Counted from the stretch's first letter, positions 1-55,255 are shown. The stretch: DNA of 64,000 nt from a virus (IMGVR_UViG_3300035670_000075:32001-96000); one strand, 5' to 3'. The notes: a model not told the origin generated them from the letters alone. Made by a program: numbers and translations.

Positions 1-3000
1 CGATAGTCGAGAACGGGCCTTCTTTGGCGGGGGAGTGCGGGAACAGTCTGTCAACCCATGCGAACACGTCAACAATGGCTGTCCACAGGTTTTGTGCTGC
101 GCTGGTGACGCCAGCGGAGAAGGTTTCGATGAGCGAGGCACCGAATGCGCTGTAATCAAAATTCATTGCTGAGTACAGCACACCGCCAATAATCAGCATT
201 GATTTTTTGATAGCAGCAGCAACCGCAATTTCAACCACGCTCAGTATGGCGAAACTTTGCTGTATCGCCATTGCCGTCGCCTGTTTGCCATACGCAGACA
301 GCGCTTTCAGTAGCAATTGCGCGCCAGGAATCGACAATCCAGCAGAGATCAGATTAACCACCCGATACCCAAGTGCCGCCCAGTCGATTTCCTTAACCCG
401 CTTGGTGAGGTCGGTGAAGATGCCAAGCAGCGCATCACCGAGCACACTGAAACGGAATTCGCCCTTGAACAGCGTATTGATTGCCGCCGCGACAGTGCCG
501 ATTAAGCGCCCGGCGATAACCAACAGGTGAACCAACGCACCCAAACCGCCAGCCATGAGTTGCATGGCGTGGGCGGCGAAGCGGAATGCTTCGGCAAGAC
601 CTTTGCCGAGCAGCATACCAACACCCTCTCCGGCGCTGGCAAGTCCGACGAGTTCGACTTGCGCCGCGCCTGCGGTATCCATCATCAGCAGTAAACCGGC
701 GACGGTTGGCGCAACGGCAACAGCCAGCGGCTTGAAGGCTTCGACGAGCGGCTTCATGGATTGCGCCATGTTGTTCAGAAAGTCGGTATCGTGAAAGGCC
801 GAGAAAACCCCGCTTAGATGGTCGCCAAACACGCGCAATTCTGCGCTGACAATTTTCAGCGACGGCAACATGCCCTGCATCAGTCCGGTGAAGAACGGCT
901 CAACTGCAATCCAAGCGCGGGCGAAACCCTCGCCAGCCGCGCGACCGAATGAGGCAAAATAACCAATCGCCACGCCCATTACGTCGATGGTAGCGACCAG
1001 CAGTTTCGTCCAGCCGTCAAGCGCTGCCATGAGCACGCCGCCGATGATTTTGCCGAGGAAGTGGGCGGAACCGGCGAAGAATACCAGGGTGCTGCGGCTG
1101 TCTTGGCTGGCAGCATCAAGCCCTAACAGCATGGACACAAAGCGCTGCACGGCGGCGATGACGGGGGCAAGCGCAGTGGTGATCGGCTCGAAGGCGGCGG
1201 CTAGAGCGCCTTGGATGGTCAGTAGAGCATCACCAAGCGGGCTGAGTGCGTCGAGCAAACCTTTGCCGAAGTAGATTGCCATGTATTTGCCGACTTCAGC
1301 GGCAAAGGCAATCACGTTGCGCAGCGGGCGTGTCAGCAGTTCTACATAACCAGCGGCAACCGCCGCAACTTCACCCATAAACTTGAATGCATTGGTCAGG
1401 CGGATGATTCCGTTTGTACCTGACTGCGTAAGGAATCTGAGCGCAGGAGAAAGCCCTGAGTAAATCGTCAACTGAAGCTCTGACAATGCTGATTTATACA
1501 ACCGCACATCGCCAGCCAGGTTTTCCAGGCGGGTTTTCGCCATCATTTCAGAGGTTTGGCTGTCAACATTCTTCAGGCTGTCGGCGTAACTCCCCATTTC
1601 CTTAGTCGCGCTACCAGTGGCTTTAACCAGCACATCCATTACGGTTAGCGCGTTCATACCGAAAATGCGCTTGTAAATACCTGCTCTATCAGCCTCATCC
1701 AAGTGCGCTGTGCGCTCTCTGATCTCCGTGAGGAGTTCGGTCATGGACTTCATGCCGCCCGTGGAGTTCTTGGCGCTGACACCGATTGCGCTTAATGCGC
1801 CGCCAACATCGTCAGCCAAGGCTTCGAGGTCGCCGATGTCGTCACCGGCTTCAATCATTTGGTTGGCAAATTTCTGAAAATCTTTATCGGCAATCTTGGT
1901 CGGTGCTGCCAGGCGCAGTAATGCTTGGCGTAAGGCTGTGCCTGACATGGAGCCTTTCAGTGCGGCGTCGCCAGCCAAGCCGATTGCGGCTGACATTTCT
2001 TCAAACGACATACCCAGTGATTCTGAAATTGGCGCGACGTACTTGGCTGATTCGTAGAACTGTTCGAGATTGACGTTACTGGTGCTCATCACTTTGGCGA
2101 ATACATCGACCATGTGCGGCAGTTCGTCAACGCTCTTGCCGAAGCCTGTCATCAGGTCTGATACGATGTCTGATGTCCGCGCCAACTCAGTGCCACCGGC
2201 AGCGGCGAGATTCAGCACCTCGCCTGTAGATTTCATGATTTGCTGCGTGCTGAAGCCGGCCATCCCAAGGTAATATTGCGCGTCTGCCGCTTCTTTAGCG
2301 GTAAATGCGGTTGCTTGCCCCAGGCTGCGTGCCTGGTCTTCCAGTAGCTTAAGCTCTTTGCGTCCGTCTCCGGTATTGATGTTGATACCTTTGACGGCGG
2401 CGACACTGGCAATCGCTTCCTCGAACGCCATGCCAGTATTGACAATGGCATCGAAGCTCTTGGTGAGCGTGCGAAAACCAACCACAGCCGCCGCGACCGC
2501 ACCGCCGACCAAGGCTGTTTTGGCAATCAGGCGACCCAAAGAGGCTTCGCCAACCTTGGCGCTGCCGGACATGTCTTTGATGTCGGCGTTAAATTCTTTG
2601 ATGTGTTTGCCGGATGTTTGATAGGCGGATGCCGCGCCGGACTTGAACGAACCCCAAAAACCTGCGAGTTGCGCCGGGGCTGATTTTAGGAATGAAGCAA
2701 AGCTTGAGAATGCGTCTTTGAAGGAGAAATTTTTGATGAAATTCGCAATGCCGCTACCAGCGCTGCGGAGCATAGTGACGAAGTTGGCGACTGTCAGTTG
2801 GCTGCGATCAAAGTTCTGCGCCATCGTCCACGCGGCGACGCTGGTGGCAATGATTTTGGCTTGGACGAACGAGGCGATACGCGCCAGCCTGTCTAAGCTG
2901 ACGTATGAAATTACTAAAATATTGTTCAAGCCGGAGAGCGTTTGCATGATCACACTGACTTTGGTAAACGTGTTCATGCTTTGCGCCAACCCGTAAGTGG

Positions 3001-3700
3001 CAACGGCAAGCTTAGCAATCTCCTCACGGTTGCGAACTGCACTAACCGCCATGCTTGCCAACATTAAACTGTGACCACTGCTGGCGGCGGTCGCCTCGCG
3101 GGTGGCTGCGGTGTTTTCTTTTAACGCTTGGGTATCTGCTTGCGTGTTCGCGGCAACAGGCGCAGGTAGAGCCGCAATTTTTTCTCTCTCGGCACGAAGT
3201 TCTTGGAAAGACTTGATGAGTTCTTCATTCGCCTGCTTCAGTTTTTGCGTAGAAGTCAATGCGTCGTCGAGTGCTTTGACGCCGTCTCCATCGACAGACA
3301 CGGTGATTTTTTGATTGATTACCGCCGTCCCGCCAATCCCTGCTGCCTTTTTGCCGGTCTTGTCCAGTTCTTTGTTGAGTTCACGCACTTGCTTGGTGAT
3401 GTTGCCGATAGCGGACGCGGATTGGTTTAGGCTTTTCGCGTCTAGTGCGCCACTGACTTTGACGGCATTCTTCTGGAACTGCTCGAACTCGCGTGCGGTT
3501 TTGGCAAGCTCGGCAAATTGCGCCAAGCCCTCCATGCTTTTCGCCATGCGCTCGGCGTCTTGCATCATCCTCCGCGTGGACTTGTCGAACCGCTCGGCAG
3601 TACGCTCGGCGGCTTCGCCAAGCTTGTCAACTTTCTTGCCAGCGCGATCAATGTCGCTTTCGTTGACGCCAATTTTGTATTCCAAGTCGTGTTCTTGCAT
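1..3700 (-). CDS. Tail tape measure protein, TP901-type core; 3' end runs off the window (>1230 aa)
   Basis: Absent from the ORF track, presumably because no stop falls in the window. Starts MQEHDLEYKIGVNESD at 3700; contains ATAFTAKEAADAQYYLGMAGF...LKGSMSGTALR; in-frame LFPHSPAKEGPFS at the left edge. Confidence 0.9.
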   Translation of the reverse strand, partial: MQEHDLEYKIGVNESDIDRAGKKVDKLGEAAERTAERFDKSTRRMMQDAERMAKSMEGLAQFAELAKTAREFEQFQKNAVKVSGALDAKSLNQSASAIGNITKQVRELNKELDKTGKKAAGIGGTAVINQKITVSVDGDGVKALDDALTSTQKLKQANEELIKSFQELRAEREKIAALPAPVAANTQADTQALKENTAATREATAASSGHSLMLASMAVSAVRNREEIAKLAVATYGLAQSMNTFTKVSVIMQTLSGLNNILVISYVSLDRLARIASFVQAKIIATSVAAWTMAQNFDRSQLTVANFVTMLRSAGSGIANFIKNFSFKDAFSSFASFLKSAPAQLAGFWGSFKSGAASAYQTSGKHIKEFNADIKDMSGSAKVGEASLGRLIAKTALVGGAVAAAVVGFRTLTKSFDAIVNTGMAFEEAIASVAAVKGININTGDGRKELKLLEDQARSLGQATAFTAKEAADAQYYLGMAGFSTQQIMKSTGEVLNLAAAGGTELARTSDIVSDLMTGFGKSVDELPHMVDVFAKVMSTSNVNLEQFYESAKYVAPISESLGMSFEEMSAAIGLAGDAALKGSMSGTALRQALLRLAAPTKIADKDFQKFANQMIEAGDDIGDLEALADDVGGALSAIGVSAKNSTGGMKSMTELLTEIRERTAHLDEADRAGIYKRIFGMNALTVMDVLVKATGSATKEMGSYADSLKNVDSQTSEMMAKTRLENLAGDVRLYKSALSELQLTIYSGLSPALRFLTQSGTNGIIRLTNAFKFMGEVAAVAAGYVELLTRPLRNVIAFAAEVGKYMAIYFGKGLLDALSPLGDALLTIQGALAAAFEPITTALAPVIAAVQRFVSMLLGLDAASQDSRSTLVFFAGSAHFLGKIIGGVLMAALDGWTKLLVATIDVMGVAIGYFASFGRAAGEGFARAWIAVEPFFTGLMQGMLPSLKIVSAELRVFGDHLSGVFSAFHDTDFLNNMAQSMKPLVEAFKPLAVAVAPTVAGLLLMMDTAGAAQVELVGLASAGEGVGMLLGKGLAEAFRFAAHAMQLMAGGLGALVHLLVIAGRLIGTVAAAINTLFKGEFRFSVLGDALLGIFTDLTKRVKEIDWAALGYRVVNLISAGLSIPGAQLLLKALSAYGKQATAMAIQQSFAILSVVEIAVAAAIKKSMLIIGGVLYSAMNFDYSAFGASLIETFSAGVTSAAQNLWTAIVDVFAWVDRLFPHSPAKEGPFSTI

Positions 3701-3838
3701 ACTAAAAGCCTAGTGTTTATGCGGTTCGATTGGGTATTATAGCATTGGTTTACTGTGTGTTGACAAATTTGTTAGCGGCGTTTATTATGCTTGTCGCTGT
3801 TTGTGTTAACTTAAATCGCCTAGCAATTAACGATCATC

Positions 3839-4087
3839 GTGGAGATTACAATGTTTAATCGCTTTAATCTTGATTACAGAAAACCCGCCAATAAAGGCGG
3901 GGAAAAACGAGAGCCGGTGATGAATTTAGCTGAACTAGCAAGGGTGACAGGTAAAAGTCGTTCAGTTTTAGAACTACGCTTGAAAAAAGCAAACCCGCCA
4001 TTAGAGGTGAAACTAATATTGAAAGGTAAAAAATATTACAGTCGTGAAGAGATGTTAAAATTGGGCAGTAGTATTGGAGTCGAGTAG
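3839..4087 (+). CDS. Small HTH DNA-binding protein
   Basis: MNLAELARVTGKSRSVL resembles an HTH; divergent from the tape measure gene. Confidence 0.5.
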   Translation: MEITMFNRFNLDYRKPANKGGEKREPVMNLAELARVTGKSRSVLELRLKKANPPLEVKLILKGKKYYSREEMLKLGSSIGVE

Positions 4088-4120: not shown

Positions 4121-4321
4121 ATGGACAAGCCAAGCCCAATCAAAGCAGAGTTAAGCGCCAGACTGATTCCAATTGCGCCGCAAGGTTTTCGACTGTTAAA
4201 GACAAAGGACAGGACACAGAACGGCGATTATTTTTATGTCCACGGGCATTGGCATCCGGTGTTCAAGGCGGGCGTGGAGATGGATGCTCGGTGTACGCAA
4301 CATTGTAGACCAGGTGGTTAG
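4121..4321 (+). CDS. Hypothetical phage protein
   Basis: ORF with AAGGA RBS in a tight operon. Confidence 0.5.
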   Translation: MDKPSPIKAELSARLIPIAPQGFRLLKTKDRTQNGDYFYVHGHWHPVFKAGVEMDARCTQHCRPGG

Positions 4322-4322
4322 T

Positions 4323-4769
4323 GTGACTGATAAAAAACAAAACCAGTTGAATCAAATCAAAGAGTTCATCAACTCTCAAACCTTCAGCGAAATAGCGCCG
4401 CTGGTTGCGCACGCGATTAATCTCGGCTACCTCAGTTTTGATGGACTTGCGTATCCTGATGAAATCTCAAAAGCGCTGCGCAGAATGCGCAAGGTTGCGA
4501 AGCGTGAGACGCATAAGATTGTCAAAGCTTGCAATGCGGCAATCTCGTCTGGTTTCGTGTCGTTTGACGGTATCGTGACAAAAGATAATGTCGAGTTATT
4601 TTTTAAGTCTGCGCTTAAGCAGTTGGGAGATGGCTCTGGCGGCGGCATGGGTAGAATTGCCAATATGCTCTTAAGCAGTGGCTACAATTCTGAATTCAAG
4701 CCAATCAGTGATGAGTTTATTCTTAAGGTCAAGAAGAAGCTGATTGAAATGATGTTGAGTAATGGGTGA
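4323..4769 (+). CDS. Hypothetical protein
   Basis: GTG start just after the previous stop; operon context. Confidence 0.5.
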   Translation: MTDKKQNQLNQIKEFINSQTFSEIAPLVAHAINLGYLSFDGLAYPDEISKALRRMRKVAKRETHKIVKACNAAISSGFVSFDGIVTKDNVELFFKSALKQLGDGSGGGMGRIANMLLSSGYNSEFKPISDEFILKVKKKLIEMMLSNG

Positions 4770-4782
4770 TTGAGAGGCAGCT

Positions 4783-5688
4783 ATGAACCAGGTCTTATTT
4801 GGCGACTGCCGCGACAGCATGAGAAAGCTTATTGCTGACGGCGTGAAGGTGCAGACGTGCATTACGTCGCCACCTTATTATGGCTTACGTGACTATGGGC
4901 ATGAAGGGCAAATTGGACTGGAAGAAAAACCAAGCGAGTATGTTGGTAAGTTGGTGGAAGTGTTCTCGCTGGTGTGGGATTTGTTGGTTGATGATGGGGT
5001 GATGTGGGTTAATCTTGGGGATAGCTACGGAGGAGATAGAGGGAATGTCAGCCACGCTCCTGATAACAAACACAAACATAATGCTGCCGATACTCCGGGT
5101 AAATCGAAAAGTGGTACGTTAAGAAAACAGCTTCTTGGCATCCCGTGGCGCGTAGCATTCGCATTGCAAGATGCTGGCTGGTATTTGCGTCAAGACATCA
5201 TCTGGAGCAAGCCTAATGCAATGCCGGAAAGCGTTACTGATCGCTGTACGAAATCTCATGAGTATGTTTTCTTACTAGCCAAGCAAGAACGGTATTATTT
5301 TGATAACGAGGCGATAAAAGAGAAAGCTAATCCAGATAGTTCTATTCGCGACAGAGATGCGACCAGACTTAACAACACGCCAGGCAGAACAAAAATGGGT
5401 GGACTCAAGAAAAACGATTACGAAATGAGAAATAAGCGCAGCGTATGGACAGTGCCAACCAAGCCATACAGCGGCGCGCACTTCGCAGTATTCCCGCCAG
5501 CGCTTATCGAACCTATGGTGTTGGCGAGTACGCGCGCTGGTGATATTGTGCTTGACCCGTTTTTAGGTAGCGGCACGACCGCGCAAGTGGCGCAAGACTT
5601 GGGGCGCAACTGGATAGGCTGCGAACTTAACCCGGATTACGCGCAACTGCAACAGCAGCGCACAGCGCAGCAGGCGTTGTGCTTGTGA
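4783..5688 (+). CDS. DNA methyltransferase, N4C/N6A beta class
   Basis: TSPPY catalytic motif, HFAVFP, VLDPFLGSGTT SAM-binding motif, IGCELN. Confidence 0.93.
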   Translation: MNQVLFGDCRDSMRKLIADGVKVQTCITSPPYYGLRDYGHEGQIGLEEKPSEYVGKLVEVFSLVWDLLVDDGVMWVNLGDSYGGDRGNVSHAPDNKHKHNAADTPGKSKSGTLRKQLLGIPWRVAFALQDAGWYLRQDIIWSKPNAMPESVTDRCTKSHEYVFLLAKQERYYFDNEAIKEKANPDSSIRDRDATRLNNTPGRTKMGGLKKNDYEMRNKRSVWTVPTKPYSGAHFAVFPPALIEPMVLASTRAGDIVLDPFLGSGTTAQVAQDLGRNWIGCELNPDYAQLQQQRTAQQALCL

Positions 5689-5707
5689 TGGTAGAGGATT
5701 AATAGCT

Positions 5708-6256
5708 ATGCAACAGGCAAAAAACATAGAAGGCTATTCTGGTGATGCAGGATGGTTTTGCGACATGTCATTGGATGCGCAAATTATTAAAAAATTTGGC
5801 GTTCTCGACCCTGGGTTGACACTGATGTATTTGATTCGCAGATTCGGCTTCCCGCTGCATGGCTGCGACGAATACAAAGAAATTGCGCAATGGCTAATAA
5901 CAACCGCGCACGACGGAATTATATTGGGTGTGTCACCTAAGCCGCATAGAGTTTATTTTCATTACTTGGCATCTAAGCAGTTAATAAGCAGTTTATACTC
6001 CTCAGACGAGGCAGAAAAAACAAAAACTCAGGAATTTGTTTTGCTTCATTTGATTAATGCTGTCGAAGATATGATTAACAAACCAATCTCTGTCAGAGAC
6101 ACTTGGTTTAACCCAATTGCAACTGGCGATCATCTACTTGATGGACACATCCCTGAAGATGATGACGATGACTTTATCAATGTCGCTGAGCGTCACGTAT
6201 CCAGTGGATATGGACTTTTGTTCTGGAATGAAAAAGGCTTCGACATTGATTTGTAA
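5708..6256 (+). CDS. Hypothetical protein
   Basis: 182-aa ORF with GAGG RBS. Confidence 0.6.
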   Translation: MQQAKNIEGYSGDAGWFCDMSLDAQIIKKFGVLDPGLTLMYLIRRFGFPLHGCDEYKEIAQWLITTAHDGIILGVSPKPHRVYFHYLASKQLISSLYSSDEAEKTKTQEFVLLHLINAVEDMINKPISVRDTWFNPIATGDHLLDGHIPEDDDDDFINVAERHVSSGYGLLFWNEKGFDIDL

Positions 6257-6443
6257 ATGCTGCGGTAAAGAATTTCCGCAAACCAGCACGCCAAAAATAT
6301 ACTGCTCGCGGGCTTGCGCGATACGAAAGGTAGGGATGCCACAAATTATTGGCAAGGAGAAAAGAAAAAAGCTGCGTAAACAGGGTGTGTGGTATACTGA
6401 AAAACAAGTTCCTTTAGGGGACTTGGTTGATTACAATGAATAA
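6228..6443 (+). CDS. Small zinc-finger protein
   Basis: CKCCGKEF...YCSRAC motif. Confidence 0.45.
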   Translation: MKKASTLICKCCGKEFPQTSTPKIYCSRACAIRKVGMPQIIGKEKRKKLRKQGVWYTEKQVPLGDLVDYNE

Positions 6444-6502
6444 ACAGAATCTCGTTGGCATCCGTTTCCAGGTATCGGTAAAACCTGGATGATTTTAGAG
6501 TG

Positions 6503-6569
6503 TATTTACAAATCCATATTGTCGCGCGCTTCGACAAGCTCAGCGAGCGGCAATATGGATTTGTAAATA
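6503..6569. repeat. Long hairpin (perfect 19-bp arms) with REP-like CTTCGACAAGCTCAG core, directly upstream of tmRNA
   Basis: TATTTACAAATCCATATTG (6503-6521) / CAATATGGATTTGTAAATA (6551-6569). Confidence 0.8.
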
Positions 6570-6577
6570 GATTTTAC

Positions 6578-6914
6578 GGGGACGACAAGGCTTCGACAGT
6601 GTGAGTGAGGTATGTCGTGCAGGTAGGTGAGAGTGTCACCTTAAAAAAACTCAAACCAGCAATCGCAAACGACGAACGCTACGCCGTAGCTGCTTAAGCT
6701 ACGCTGCATCGCGGCGGTGCTTGTATACCGCGAATCGCAGTCATTTACAAGATCGTCATGCCTGATGTCTGCGACGGCTTGATTAAATCGGCGGACTCTC
6801 CGCGCCTAAGCCTTTCGCTCGGCGTCGTCGCGGTAACCCAATAGAGCGAATAAACCTGTAGATCGGCATGGTGAAACATGCTGGACGTGGGTTCGATTCC
6901 CACCGTCTCCACCA
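6578..6914 (+). ncRNA. ssrA: tmRNA (transfer-messenger RNA), tag ANDERYAVAA
   Basis: Acceptor stem GGGGACG/CGTCTCC-ACCA with G3:U70; TTCGAC near the 5' end; T-arm GTGGGTTCGATTCCCAC; tag ORF gca aac gac gaa cgc tac gcc gta gct gct taa at 6665-6697. Confidence 0.95.
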
Positions 6915-6938
6915 TGTTTATTTTTAACCCATATAAAA

Positions 6939-7133
6939 ATGCCTGAAGAAAAAGATAGGTACTGTTCGTTTTGTGGACAGCCTAGCGACATCGTGGATTT
7001 GCTTATCGCCGCGCCTGGAGAGCAGGCGTTTATCTGCAATGAGTGCGTGGTGTCATGTGTTGACCTAATCAATAAAGTTTACATCGAGAGACGCAATGGG
7101 AAACAGAACAAACGCAAAGAAGTTCAGAGCTAA
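6939..7133 (+). CDS. Stand-alone ClpX C4-type zinc-binding-domain protein
   Basis: YCSFCGQPSDIVDLLIAAPGEQAFICNECVVSCVDLI matches the ClpX N-terminal domain pattern (CSFCG..LIAGP..ICxECV..C..II). Confidence 0.88.
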   Translation: MPEEKDRYCSFCGQPSDIVDLLIAAPGEQAFICNECVVSCVDLINKVYIERRNGKQNKRKEVQS

Positions 7134-7419
7134 TCTACGCCAACGCACGACTGAAGCACTCCTCCAACATTCAAAGCAGATGCTCGCGGGAGTAGCCGCC
7201 GAAACCAAAGAAGATGCGGCTATCAATACGCCGGTCGATACTGGTGAACTGCAAGAAGGATGGGATACTGAAGCTTCTGACAATGGGCTTACGCAGTCAA
7301 TTTTTAATGACACCCCGTATGCGAACGAGCGTGAGTTTGCGCCTGGCGGTGGCATGTTGCGCATGGCGACGTTGCCCGGCGTAATGGAAGATCGCGGAAA
7401 GAGGCACTGGAACAAATGA
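7096..7419 (+). CDS. HK97 gp10-like tail/neck component
   Basis: TPVDTGELQEGW and NDTPYA..EF motifs. Confidence 0.7.
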   Translation: MGNRTNAKKFRANLRQRTTEALLQHSKQMLAGVAAETKEDAAINTPVDTGELQEGWDTEASDNGLTQSIFNDTPYANEREFAPGGGMLRMATLPGVMEDRGKRHWNK

Positions 7420-7811
7420 ACACTTGTGTCAGTATCAATCTCATTGCCGCAGTAGGTAAGAGCGGACAAATTGGGCTTGACGGCGTGCTGCCTTGGTATG
7501 AACCGCGCGACTTGGCGTGGTTTCGCTGTATGACAATGAATAATATCGTTGTTGTTGGTTGGAGAACGGCGCAGAAGCTACCGTCGTTACCTGGGCGAGA
7601 GTTGATTGTATTTCAGCGTGGCGGGATGTCGATTGATGATATTATCCGGCACGCTAACGCCGCCAACAAAGATATTTTTGTGTGCGGTGGCGCTGCAACC
7701 TACAATGCTTGGATGAGTAAGATAGACAGGTTTTATATCAGCCGTATTGATTACGATGGTGAGGCTGACACATTTATGGACGTATCAATATCATGTCGTA
7801 CAGCCAGTTAA
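7416..7811 (+). CDS. folA: Dihydrofolate reductase (short form)
   Basis: IAAV..GQIG..G.LPW...DLAWFR..T...VVVG.RT...LPGR; VCGGAATY; ADTF. Confidence 0.88.
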   Translation: MNTCVSINLIAAVGKSGQIGLDGVLPWYEPRDLAWFRCMTMNNIVVVGWRTAQKLPSLPGRELIVFQRGGMSIDDIIRHANAANKDIFVCGGAATYNAWMSKIDRFYISRIDYDGEADTFMDVSISCRTAS

Positions 7812-8227
7812 AAAGAATAGCCGCTAAAGCGGTCAAAGTCGGACAGCAGTGGACTGATCCTGAAAAGCAATCTATCACCTTCATCCACACGCCGGTTGCC
7901 ACGCAAGCGGCGTATCGCCCAGGTCAGCGCTACACGCAACCTTCAGTGACTCCAACAGAATACCCTGAAGCCACTGGCTTTCTTGTGCGTGCTGAATTCA
8001 AGGAATCAGAGAACGGACATGATGTAATCGTCCACGGCTGGATGTTTACCAAAGAGATTGATAAGTTAGGTGACGTGATAGCCGAGATTGTCAGTTCGCA
8101 AGCAGGCATCGAGAAGCTGTGCCAAGGCGGTTCCGAGTGGACGGTGCAGACTGCTTACGGTTTATGCAAAGTGCGCGCCGTGGTGATGAATAACCCAATG
8201 GTTGTTTTTGAGTTGCGGGGTGTTTGA
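7793..8227 (+). CDS. Putative head-closure/neck protein
   Basis: Size and N-terminus (MSYSQLKRIAAKAV) resemble head-tail joining proteins; near the gp10-like gene. Confidence 0.4.
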   Translation: MSYSQLKRIAAKAVKVGQQWTDPEKQSITFIHTPVATQAAYRPGQRYTQPSVTPTEYPEATGFLVRAEFKESENGHDVIVHGWMFTKEIDKLGDVIAEIVSSQAGIEKLCQGGSEWTVQTAYGLCKVRAVVMNNPMVVFELRGV

Positions 8228-8378: not shown

Positions 8379-8429
8379 CACACAAAAAAGCCCGCCATGC
8401 GTTTATTGCGTGGCGGGCTTTTTTGTGTG
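8379..8429. terminator. Bidirectional rho-independent terminator
   Basis: CACACAAAAAAGCCCGCCATGC...GCGTGGCGGGCTTTTTTGTGTG between convergent operons. Confidence 0.9.
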
Positions 8430-49686: not shown

Positions 49687-49736
49687 CTTGTAGATAGGCA
49701 GAATGTTGAATAACTGTTATTTAACATTCTGCCTAT
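49681..49736 (-). other. attI-like site containing a 43-bp palindrome (copy 1)
   Basis: ATAGGCAGAATGTTGAATAAC-T-GTTATTTAACATTCTGCCTAT at 49694-49736, next to the core site. Confidence 0.6.
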
Positions 49737-55202: not shown

Positions 55203-55255
55203 ACCTCTAACTTGTAACTAGGCAGAATGTTAAATAACTGTTATTCAACATTCTG
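55203..55255 (-). other. attI-like site containing a palindrome (copy 2)
   Basis: CTAACTTGTAACTAGGCAGAATGTTAAATAACTGTTATTCAACATTCTG, near-identical to 49683-49731. Confidence 0.6.

Follow-up and report, generated by a model that had tools for sequence, protein, structure and literature searches.

In the phage studied here, a tmRNA gene is followed at a short distance by a gene for a 64-aa protein that consists of a ClpX-type zinc-binding domain (ZBD) and little else, which raises the question of whether the two genes form one device or are accessory genes with separate tasks. The original prediction, made from the sequence of this locus, took them for a candidate module that may supply a ribosome-rescue RNA together with a decoy ZBD. 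We analyzed the locus in a window of 64,000 nt, the whole stretch of DNA under study, which corresponds to bases 32001–96000 of a 105,387-bp IMG/VR virus record rated 95% complete. Positions below are counted from the first letter of the window.

The record holds roughly 121 genes, and these encode a Mu-like gpT major head protein (416 bits) as well as a terminase, a portal, a ClpP-fold prohead protease, RNR, ThyA, DHFR, methylases, and two tyrosine integrases. It is a tailed phage of 105 kb with a Mu-like head and is probably temperate. Among isolated phages, no TerL exceeds 37% identity to that of the present phage, which leaves no close relative for a comparison of synteny; additionally, the capsid relatives that we found share at most 59% identity with its own capsid. 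Judged by such identities, the phage appears novel and without a close relative in the sequence collections. Two features were observed in passing at other places. An open frame of about 8036 aa occupies positions 1–3700 of the window on the − strand and continues beyond its left edge (G000 ~11591–35700); it presumably encodes a giant tape-measure-like protein. Moreover, two near-perfect palindromes (49694–49736 and 55223–55255) have a common core, CAGAATGTTnAATAAC / GTTATTnAACATTCTG, and are operator-like, the second lying just upstream of an integrase gene.

The tmRNA gene and its tag

ARAGORN identified a single tmRNA gene in the window (6578–6914, + strand), and Rfam RF00023 matches at the same coordinates over the full model (1–374) with 161 bits (E 1.2e-63; gathering score 47). 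The gene is complete, of the one-piece type, and 337 nt long. Its tRNA-like domain is present, with the 5′ part at 1–27 and the 3′ part at 299–337 (ARAGORN), and the acceptor stem (5′ GGGGACG/CGUCUCC) contains a G3:U70 pair, the identity pair for alanyl-tRNA synthetase. CCA is encoded in the gene. The tag reading frame (6665–6697, +) starts at a GCA (Ala) resume codon behind ...CAAUC and ends in TAA; it reads GCA AAC GAC GAA CGC TAC GCC GTA GCT GCT TAA, which corresponds to (A)ANDERYAVAA* (ANDERYAVAA* in the ARAGORN call). The pseudoknot-rich body is present, and several of its helices contain non-canonical pairs. Furthermore, the 105-kb record contains no other tRNA-like gene, and hence the tmRNA is not part of a tRNA cluster. 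A second, weak tmRNA-like match at the left end of the record (14.5 bits) was rejected: its position coincides with a coding start, where ARAGORN makes no call. Searches of the record for SmpB and SspB found neither, and because the phage encodes no SmpB, the host would have to supply it. Collectively, the tmRNA appears intact and most likely works with AlaRS, EF-Tu, and SmpB of the host.

Tags of the family ANDER[FY]A[LIVM]AA occur overwhelmingly in Burkholderiales-type (beta-proteobacterial) genomes. In 120 sampled host ssrA loci, we observed ANDERFALAA, ANDERYALAA, and close variants, and the exact phage tag ANDERYAVAA was present in none of the 120. The alignment of the phage tmRNA with host tmRNAs is confined to the tRNA-like ends and the tag region, and the phage gene is shorter (337 nt versus about 360–390 nt), which points to an old, diverged copy and not to a recent capture. 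The phage tag keeps the AANDxxY part and an AVAA end. As reported, the AANDxxY part is read by SspB and the ALAA end by the ClpX pore (PMC8512704). The phage tag still looks like a degron that SspB and ClpX can read. Separately, two phage proteins encoded outside the window, at G000:C1:101904–103328 (+) and 104464–104841 (−), end in ...EEAVAA and ...RQVAA, respectively, and share the VAA end of the tag; about 0.35 proteins with VAA-type C-termini would be expected among ~121, and two were found.

The tmRNA gene might have no use in tagging and be either a relic of an attachment site or a decoy that sequesters SmpB of the host. Integration into ssrA is common among mobile elements; in the viral contig L423, for example, a 3′ fragment lies beside an integrase, and the present phage has two tyrosine integrases. 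In addition, a TLD-only phage tmRNA that maybe titrates SmpB has been published (PMC4131195). However, the tmRNA described here is full length with its tag frame and stop intact, the integrases lie about 49 kb away, and the tmRNA body is far diverged from host tmRNAs, which speaks against recent capture. We therefore regard a relic or an SmpB decoy as extremely improbable.

A stand-alone ClpX-type zinc-binding domain

The ZBD gene (6939–7133, +) encodes 64 aa. No start codon other than its ATG follows the in-frame stop upstream of the gene, and no Shine-Dalgarno sequence is visible before this ATG. Pfam PF06689 (zf-C4_ClpX) matches residues 8–45 with 53.4 bits (E 2.4e-14; cut-off 27), and the protein has no other Pfam match; the AAA+ module is absent, so the protein is not a ClpX. 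The zinc ligands Cys9, Cys12, Cys33, and Cys36 (CxxC...CxxC) are invariant in the sequence alignment. Based on the AF2 model (pLDDT 88), the best Foldseek matches are 2DS8, 2DS5, 2DS6, and 2DS7, all structures of the E. coli ZBD, with target-normalised TM values of 0.85–0.90 and an rmsd of 0.8–1.0 Å over about 42 residues at 45–49% identity. Similarly, the significant matches in a sequence search of the PDB are ClpX N-termini, and the phage ZBD is 45–57% identical to proteobacterial ClpX ZBDs. The original prediction of a ZBD-only ORF of 64 aa beginning 24 nt after the tmRNA CCA is thus exact by ARAGORN, Rfam, Pfam, and the gap itself (6915–6938), and its assignment of the protein to the true ClpX-type ZBDs is borne out by a model that lies within about 1.0 Å of 2DS5–2DS8.

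The residues of the hydrophobic docking patch are kept, with Phe11 and Leu43 of the phage protein corresponding to Phe16 and Ile46 of E. coli ClpX. In E. coli, the Phe16/Ile46 patch binds lambda O, SspB, and RssB (PMC7804408). In contrast to ClpX, the phage protein carries a 2-residue loop insertion before the second Cys pair, which is also found in a ZBD-only subgroup, and a long basic C-terminal helix. We also predicted a complex in which the SspB tail of E. coli (residues 126–165), a stand-in that may not be the host's, is combined with two copies of the ZBD. This prediction gave weak support for docking: it scored 0.32 against 0.03 for the best control, and since the similar 2DS8 complex has been solved, the pass may reflect a structure that the prediction model already knew. 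Of 80 solved complexes, 58 pass the mark applied to such predictions, as do 2 of 110 mismatched pairs; with a score of 0.60 or below, only 7 of the 80 pass, together with both of these mismatches. At least 90% of contacts are common to the runs, and the partner pLDDT is at least 51; with a like complex solved in 2DS8, the prediction indicates likeness and not binding.

The ClpX ZBD is a dimerisation domain (1OVX, 2DS5–2DS8), and the phage protein may dimerise as well. One alternative is that it pairs with the N-domains of host ClpX in mixed dimers and thereby disables the trimer of dimers or recruits cargo chosen by the phage; it would then act as a poison subunit or an adaptor and not as a passive decoy. 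The 45–57% identity to proteobacterial ClpX ZBDs fits such pairing, whereas the loop insertion and the long C-terminal helix are unlike ClpX, and the phage protein has no cargo-binding domain. We consider mixed dimers of this kind highly doubtful.

Short ZBD proteins are widespread. Four PHROG families match the phage protein (phrog_12435, phrog_5259, phrog_6797, and phrog_20296), and the ESM Atlas contains clusters of 49–68-aa proteins annotated as 'ClpX-type ZB domain' with up to 4460 members. Among 1.84 billion representatives, the best 150 matches are nearly all short or tandem multi-ZBD proteins and not ClpX of about 420 aa, which argues that the phage protein is no fragment of a host clpX. 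The best-matching proteins, including P0001, P0002, and P0004, are made up of 2–4 ZBD repeats in tandem; one of 226 aa has four copies. ZBD domains occur also in tandem-repeat and fusion proteins unrelated to ClpX, and for this reason the fold may be a general peptide-binding module. No close relatives of the ZBD were found in a single-protein search of IMG/VR, and a word-indexed protein search with the ZBD gave no candidates. An attempt to assign the host through the ZBD was abandoned, as 301 sampled Burkholderiales genomes gave almost only their own ClpX, with at most 57% identity and no closer than E. coli. Three unpublished genomes (G325, G236, and G057) are counted in this sample, and none of them individually carries a conclusion. 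In other phages, ZBD-only genes lie near repressors, regulators, integrases, and methylases without a constant partner, and this neighborhood fits a free-standing, host-directed accessory gene. We know of no function assigned to any ZBD-only protein of phages or bacteria.

These relationships bear on the further possibility that the protein is unconnected with ClpXP and is a small zinc-ribbon module for dimerisation or peptide binding with a basic helical tail, serving as a regulator or as a factor that binds nucleic acids or ribosomes. Its nearest relatives are the tandem multi-ZBD and fusion proteins and not ClpX, its C-terminal tail, KVYIERRNGKQNKRKEVQS, is rich in Lys and Arg, with like tails recurring in other ZBD-only proteins, and the phage neighbors of such genes elsewhere are mostly transcription regulators. 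On the other hand, the residues of the adaptor-docking patch are conserved, the fold is within 1 Å of the ClpX ZBD, and no DNA-binding family matches. A role apart from ClpXP is, in our estimate, unlikely.

Operon layout and conservation of the pairing

All genes at 4236–8227 are encoded on the + strand, with ends that abut or overlap. A 177-aa ORF comes first, followed by an N6/N4 methylase, a 182-aa ORF, a small zinc-ribbon ORF, the tmRNA, the ZBD gene, an HK97-gp10-like ORF, DHFR, and a 144-aa ORF. A promoter-like site at 3760–3788 (+; TTGACA-17-TATTAT, 11/12 consensus) is a candidate start of this rightward operon; it is a pattern match, and the number of such sites in the region is not above that in shuffles. 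At the other end, the operon is closed by a bidirectional intrinsic-terminator-like hairpin (8379–8429; AAAAAAGCCCGCC...GGCGGGCTTTTTT), the sole such hairpin of the operon. The tmRNA and the ZBD gene are separated by exactly 24 nt (6915–6938) on the same strand, and since no terminator-like site was found between them, their co-transcription is likely. Downstream of the tmRNA, the coupling is closer: the start of the HK97-gp10-like ORF (7096–7419, +) overlaps the 3′ end of the ZBD gene by 38 nt, DHFR (7416–7811, +) overlaps the HK97-gp10-like ORF, and the 144-aa ORF (7793–8227, +) overlaps DHFR.

A long hairpin (6496–6576, +) with 35-nt arms and an 11-nt loop ends 1 nt before the tmRNA 5′ end. 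Its arms are 86% complementary, and no local inverted repeat elsewhere in the window is longer. The RNA fold has an energy of −44.9 kcal/mol (z −9.4), and none of 200 shuffles was as stable. This hairpin may serve in processing, perhaps as an RNase III-type site, or as a leader of the precursor.

Several further observations concern the surroundings of the pair. The HK97-gp10-like (tail-completion/neck) ORF is a weak match (22.4 bits versus a cut-off of 21.4); it stands apart from the structural module, between the ZBD gene and DHFR, both of which it overlaps, and is given here as context and not as a demonstrated partner. Two repeats were noted in the regions 6234–6258, 6504–6517, and 6555–6601. 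The motif GATTTGTAAAT occurs three times in 320 nt, a number that shuffles of the whole window also reach. In addition, 15 nt at the end of the 182-aa ORF, AAGGCTTCGACA(T/G)TG, recur in the 5′ part of the tmRNA and may be a recombination scar or chance. No compositional island was seen around the pair. A blastn search of the region against GenBank phages returned the DHFR match alone, and no relatives of the flanking 182-aa and 144-aa ORFs were found.

To our question of a joint function, the distribution of the two genes in other phages is central. In a first scan, 80 viral loci with a ZBD comprised about 50 full-length ClpX and 28 ZBD-only loci, and no tmRNA was found within 10 kb of the 28 ZBD-only loci or elsewhere in their records. 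A second scan with the insertion-type ZBD yielded 37 true ZBDs; about 24 of these are ZBD-only, and here too a tmRNA was absent. Both scans together thus gave 0 of about 52 ZBD-only phage records with a tmRNA. In the reverse scan of an IMG/VR sample, 118 viral loci with a tmRNA 3′ end yielded at least 80 tmRNA calls, 73 with at least 500 nt downstream; among the matches listed, none of the 80 calls had a ZBD in its flank, while the window, as the positive control, scored 5.5e-18. Moreover, the 27 capsid relatives contain neither a tmRNA nor a ZBD. No ZBD was found near the 120 host ssrA loci either, and with 0 of 120, co-capture of the pair from a host ssrA locus was rejected.

We also searched for the exact arrangement by using a pattern of a tmRNA 3′ end, 25–55 nt, and C-x-F-C-G codons. 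The pattern occurs once in the window and in none of 100 shuffles, and 2.9 million viral and 241 million metagenome contigs contained no second case of the arrangement. Beyond the window, it matched one viral contig (L423) and 44 metagenome stretches, none with a ZBD. L423 was rejected as a second case because it combines an ssrA att fragment beside an integrase with a chance CFFCG motif and has no ZBD. Its positions 1212–1288 represent the tmRNA 3′ end alone, beside a tyrosine integrase (2790–3995), that is, an ordinary ssrA attachment site and no tmRNA gene. Furthermore, a literature search for a tmRNA–ZBD pairing or a phage ZBD-only inhibitor returned nothing relevant, and no second pairing was found in the sequence collections. 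The statement in the original prediction that no description of the pairing was known therefore holds, whereas linkage in other phages, whose absence the prediction named as a ground for refutation, did not appear in either direction of the survey or in the contigs. The tmRNA–ZBD pairing is a singleton, and each of the two kinds of gene is already known in phages.

A related combination, a tmRNA with a full-length phage clpX, co-occurs in two other lineages. In L033/L035, two-piece alpha-type tmRNAs with the tags ANDNFA(N/Y)E(D/E)LALAA lie 7–9 kb from clpX. In G369/G387/G414 (loci L528, L529, and L535–L537), the tags are ANDNVEF[DE]YA[LV]AA; the distance between the tmRNA and clpX is 11–13 kb in G369 and G387, and a true clpP is also present in G414. 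In total, 5 of about 63 ClpX-bearing phage records have both a tmRNA and clpX; all five are from large phages, and the combination may be a matter of genome size.

Against this background, the tmRNA and the ZBD protein could be a co-selected two-part device, in which the tmRNA provides rescue, for example, after host RNase toxins have cut mRNAs, and the ZBD titrates SspB-type adaptors or poisons ClpX, so that rescue is separated from ClpXP proteolysis or re-timed relative to it. The genes share a strand, only 24 nt without a terminator separate them, and the tmRNA is the sole tRNA-like gene and not part of a tRNA cluster. Adjacency of two parts of one pathway would arise by chance with a probability of about 2% (about 2 in 121 genes; a post hoc figure), which keeps the module reading alive and is poorly explained by independent neighbors. 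The tmRNA with full-length clpX in the two large-phage lineages points in the same direction. However, a tmRNA is absent from all of the roughly 52 ZBD-only records and a flanking ZBD from the 80 listed tmRNA calls, viral and metagenome contigs offer no second arrangement, and both genes are missing from the 27 capsid relatives. Moreover, ClpX reads the ssrA tag without the ZBD or SspB (PMC8512704), the tag keeps its AVAA end although a phage wanting stable tagged products could alter it, and the ZBD gene is coupled by overlaps more tightly to the three downstream genes than to the tmRNA. On balance, we think it unlikely that the two genes form such a device.

In its fullest form, this device would be a co-selected counter-defence or takeover module. 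The tmRNA would keep ribosomes running on non-stop messages that arise from host RNase toxins or phage-induced mRNA decay, and the ZBD from the same transcript would block adaptor docking on host ClpX, re-timing or re-routing ClpXP. Such a module could spare phage proteins or keep the protease from flooding, and it would be a minimal version of the kit of a tmRNA and an own ClpX in the two large-phage lineages. We hold this extended form to be improbable as well.

Possible role of the pair and comparison with known systems

Our preferred reading, to which we give a probability of about 0.5, is that a working tmRNA and a ClpX N-domain mimic are encoded side by side as two accessory genes of one rightward operon. 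For the ZBD protein itself, a decoy is the best available reading, with a chance at or slightly below even, and the role is reasonable because the hydrophobic docking patch (Phe11, Leu43) is kept. According to the preferred reading, the tmRNA would release ribosomes that stall during infection and append the tag (A)ANDERYAVAA, and the 64-aa protein would fold as a zinc-ribbon ClpX N-domain and display the same hydrophobic docking patch as ClpX. The free ZBD would then compete with host ClpX for adaptor tails of the SspB XB type and the RssB type and for N-domain-dependent substrates. The expected outcome would be an altered choice of ClpXP substrates and not a shutdown of the protease.

Published work on ClpX sets the range of this competition. 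The ssrA tag is recognised via the axial pore of ClpX, and degradation proceeds without SspB, with a Km of 3.4 μM versus 0.47 μM with SspB (PMC8512704). Adaptors, as well as lambda O and similar substrates, depend on the N-domain (PMC7804408). Since ClpX reads the ssrA tag without the ZBD, a free ZBD would at most slow adaptor-assisted delivery and could not on its own halt the turnover of tmRNA-tagged proteins; since adaptors and lambda-O-type substrates need the N-domain, it can plausibly compete for adaptor tails. The original prediction went further and proposed a possible uncoupling of rescue from degradation, which does not agree with a pore that reads the tag without the ZBD, an SspB that only lowers Km, and a phage tag that keeps AVAA. 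Within the phage, no MuA-like or lambda-O-like ClpX substrates were found, and the DDE_2 search used for this matched no control genome either.

ZBD-only proteins number in the thousands across phages and bacteria, and a free ClpX docking domain is the simplest conceivable viral way to edit the targets of the host's main regulated protease. The phage provides a small, clean ZBD-only example directly behind a ribosome-rescue RNA and is thus a convenient handle on ZBD-only roles through standard ClpXP assays. If the tmRNA and the ZBD protein cooperate, this would be the first phage that tunes both halves of trans-translation, that is, rescue and disposal; if they do not, the pair still helps to define the roles of the ZBD-only family and of phage tmRNAs.

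Comparison with known systems places the two genes as follows. The N-terminal ZBD of ClpX (PF06689; 1OVX, 2DS5–2DS8) is likewise a C4 zinc ribbon of the same fold with a docking patch for SspB, RssB, and lambda O. In contrast to ClpX, the phage protein has no linker or AAA+ motor and is unable to unfold anything itself. The stand-alone ZBD proteins of phages and bacteria are of the same size (about 50–125 aa) and ZBD-only make-up and are encoded in early or accessory regions of mostly temperate phages; however, the phage ZBD is at most 61% identical to any of them, and about 52 such phage records are without a tmRNA. The SspB analogue of Pseudomonas phage pf16 (PMC5587285) is likewise a phage copy of a piece of the SspB–ClpX delivery route, but the piece copied by pf16 is the adaptor, not the docking domain, and a tmRNA-like element is reported to be absent from that phage (PMC5587285).

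The large phages with clpX import the same two pathways, trans-translation and ClpX, by one genome. They encode a whole ClpX of 420–436 aa at 7–13 kb from the tmRNA and on either strand, whereas here the docking domain alone lies 24 nt away. Finally, phage-encoded tmRNAs are of a published kind, with a role in ribosome rescue that has been presumed and never shown (PMC4131195). Those of mycobacteriophages Bxz1, Cali, Catera, Rizal, Wildcat, and others and of Bacillus phage G (PMC4131195) are likewise complete one-piece tmRNAs in phages without an SmpB of their own. The tmRNA described here differs from them in its Burkholderiales-type tag, its compact length of 337 nt, and its position as the sole tRNA-like gene, with a hairpin of 35-bp arms before it and a ZBD gene directly after it.
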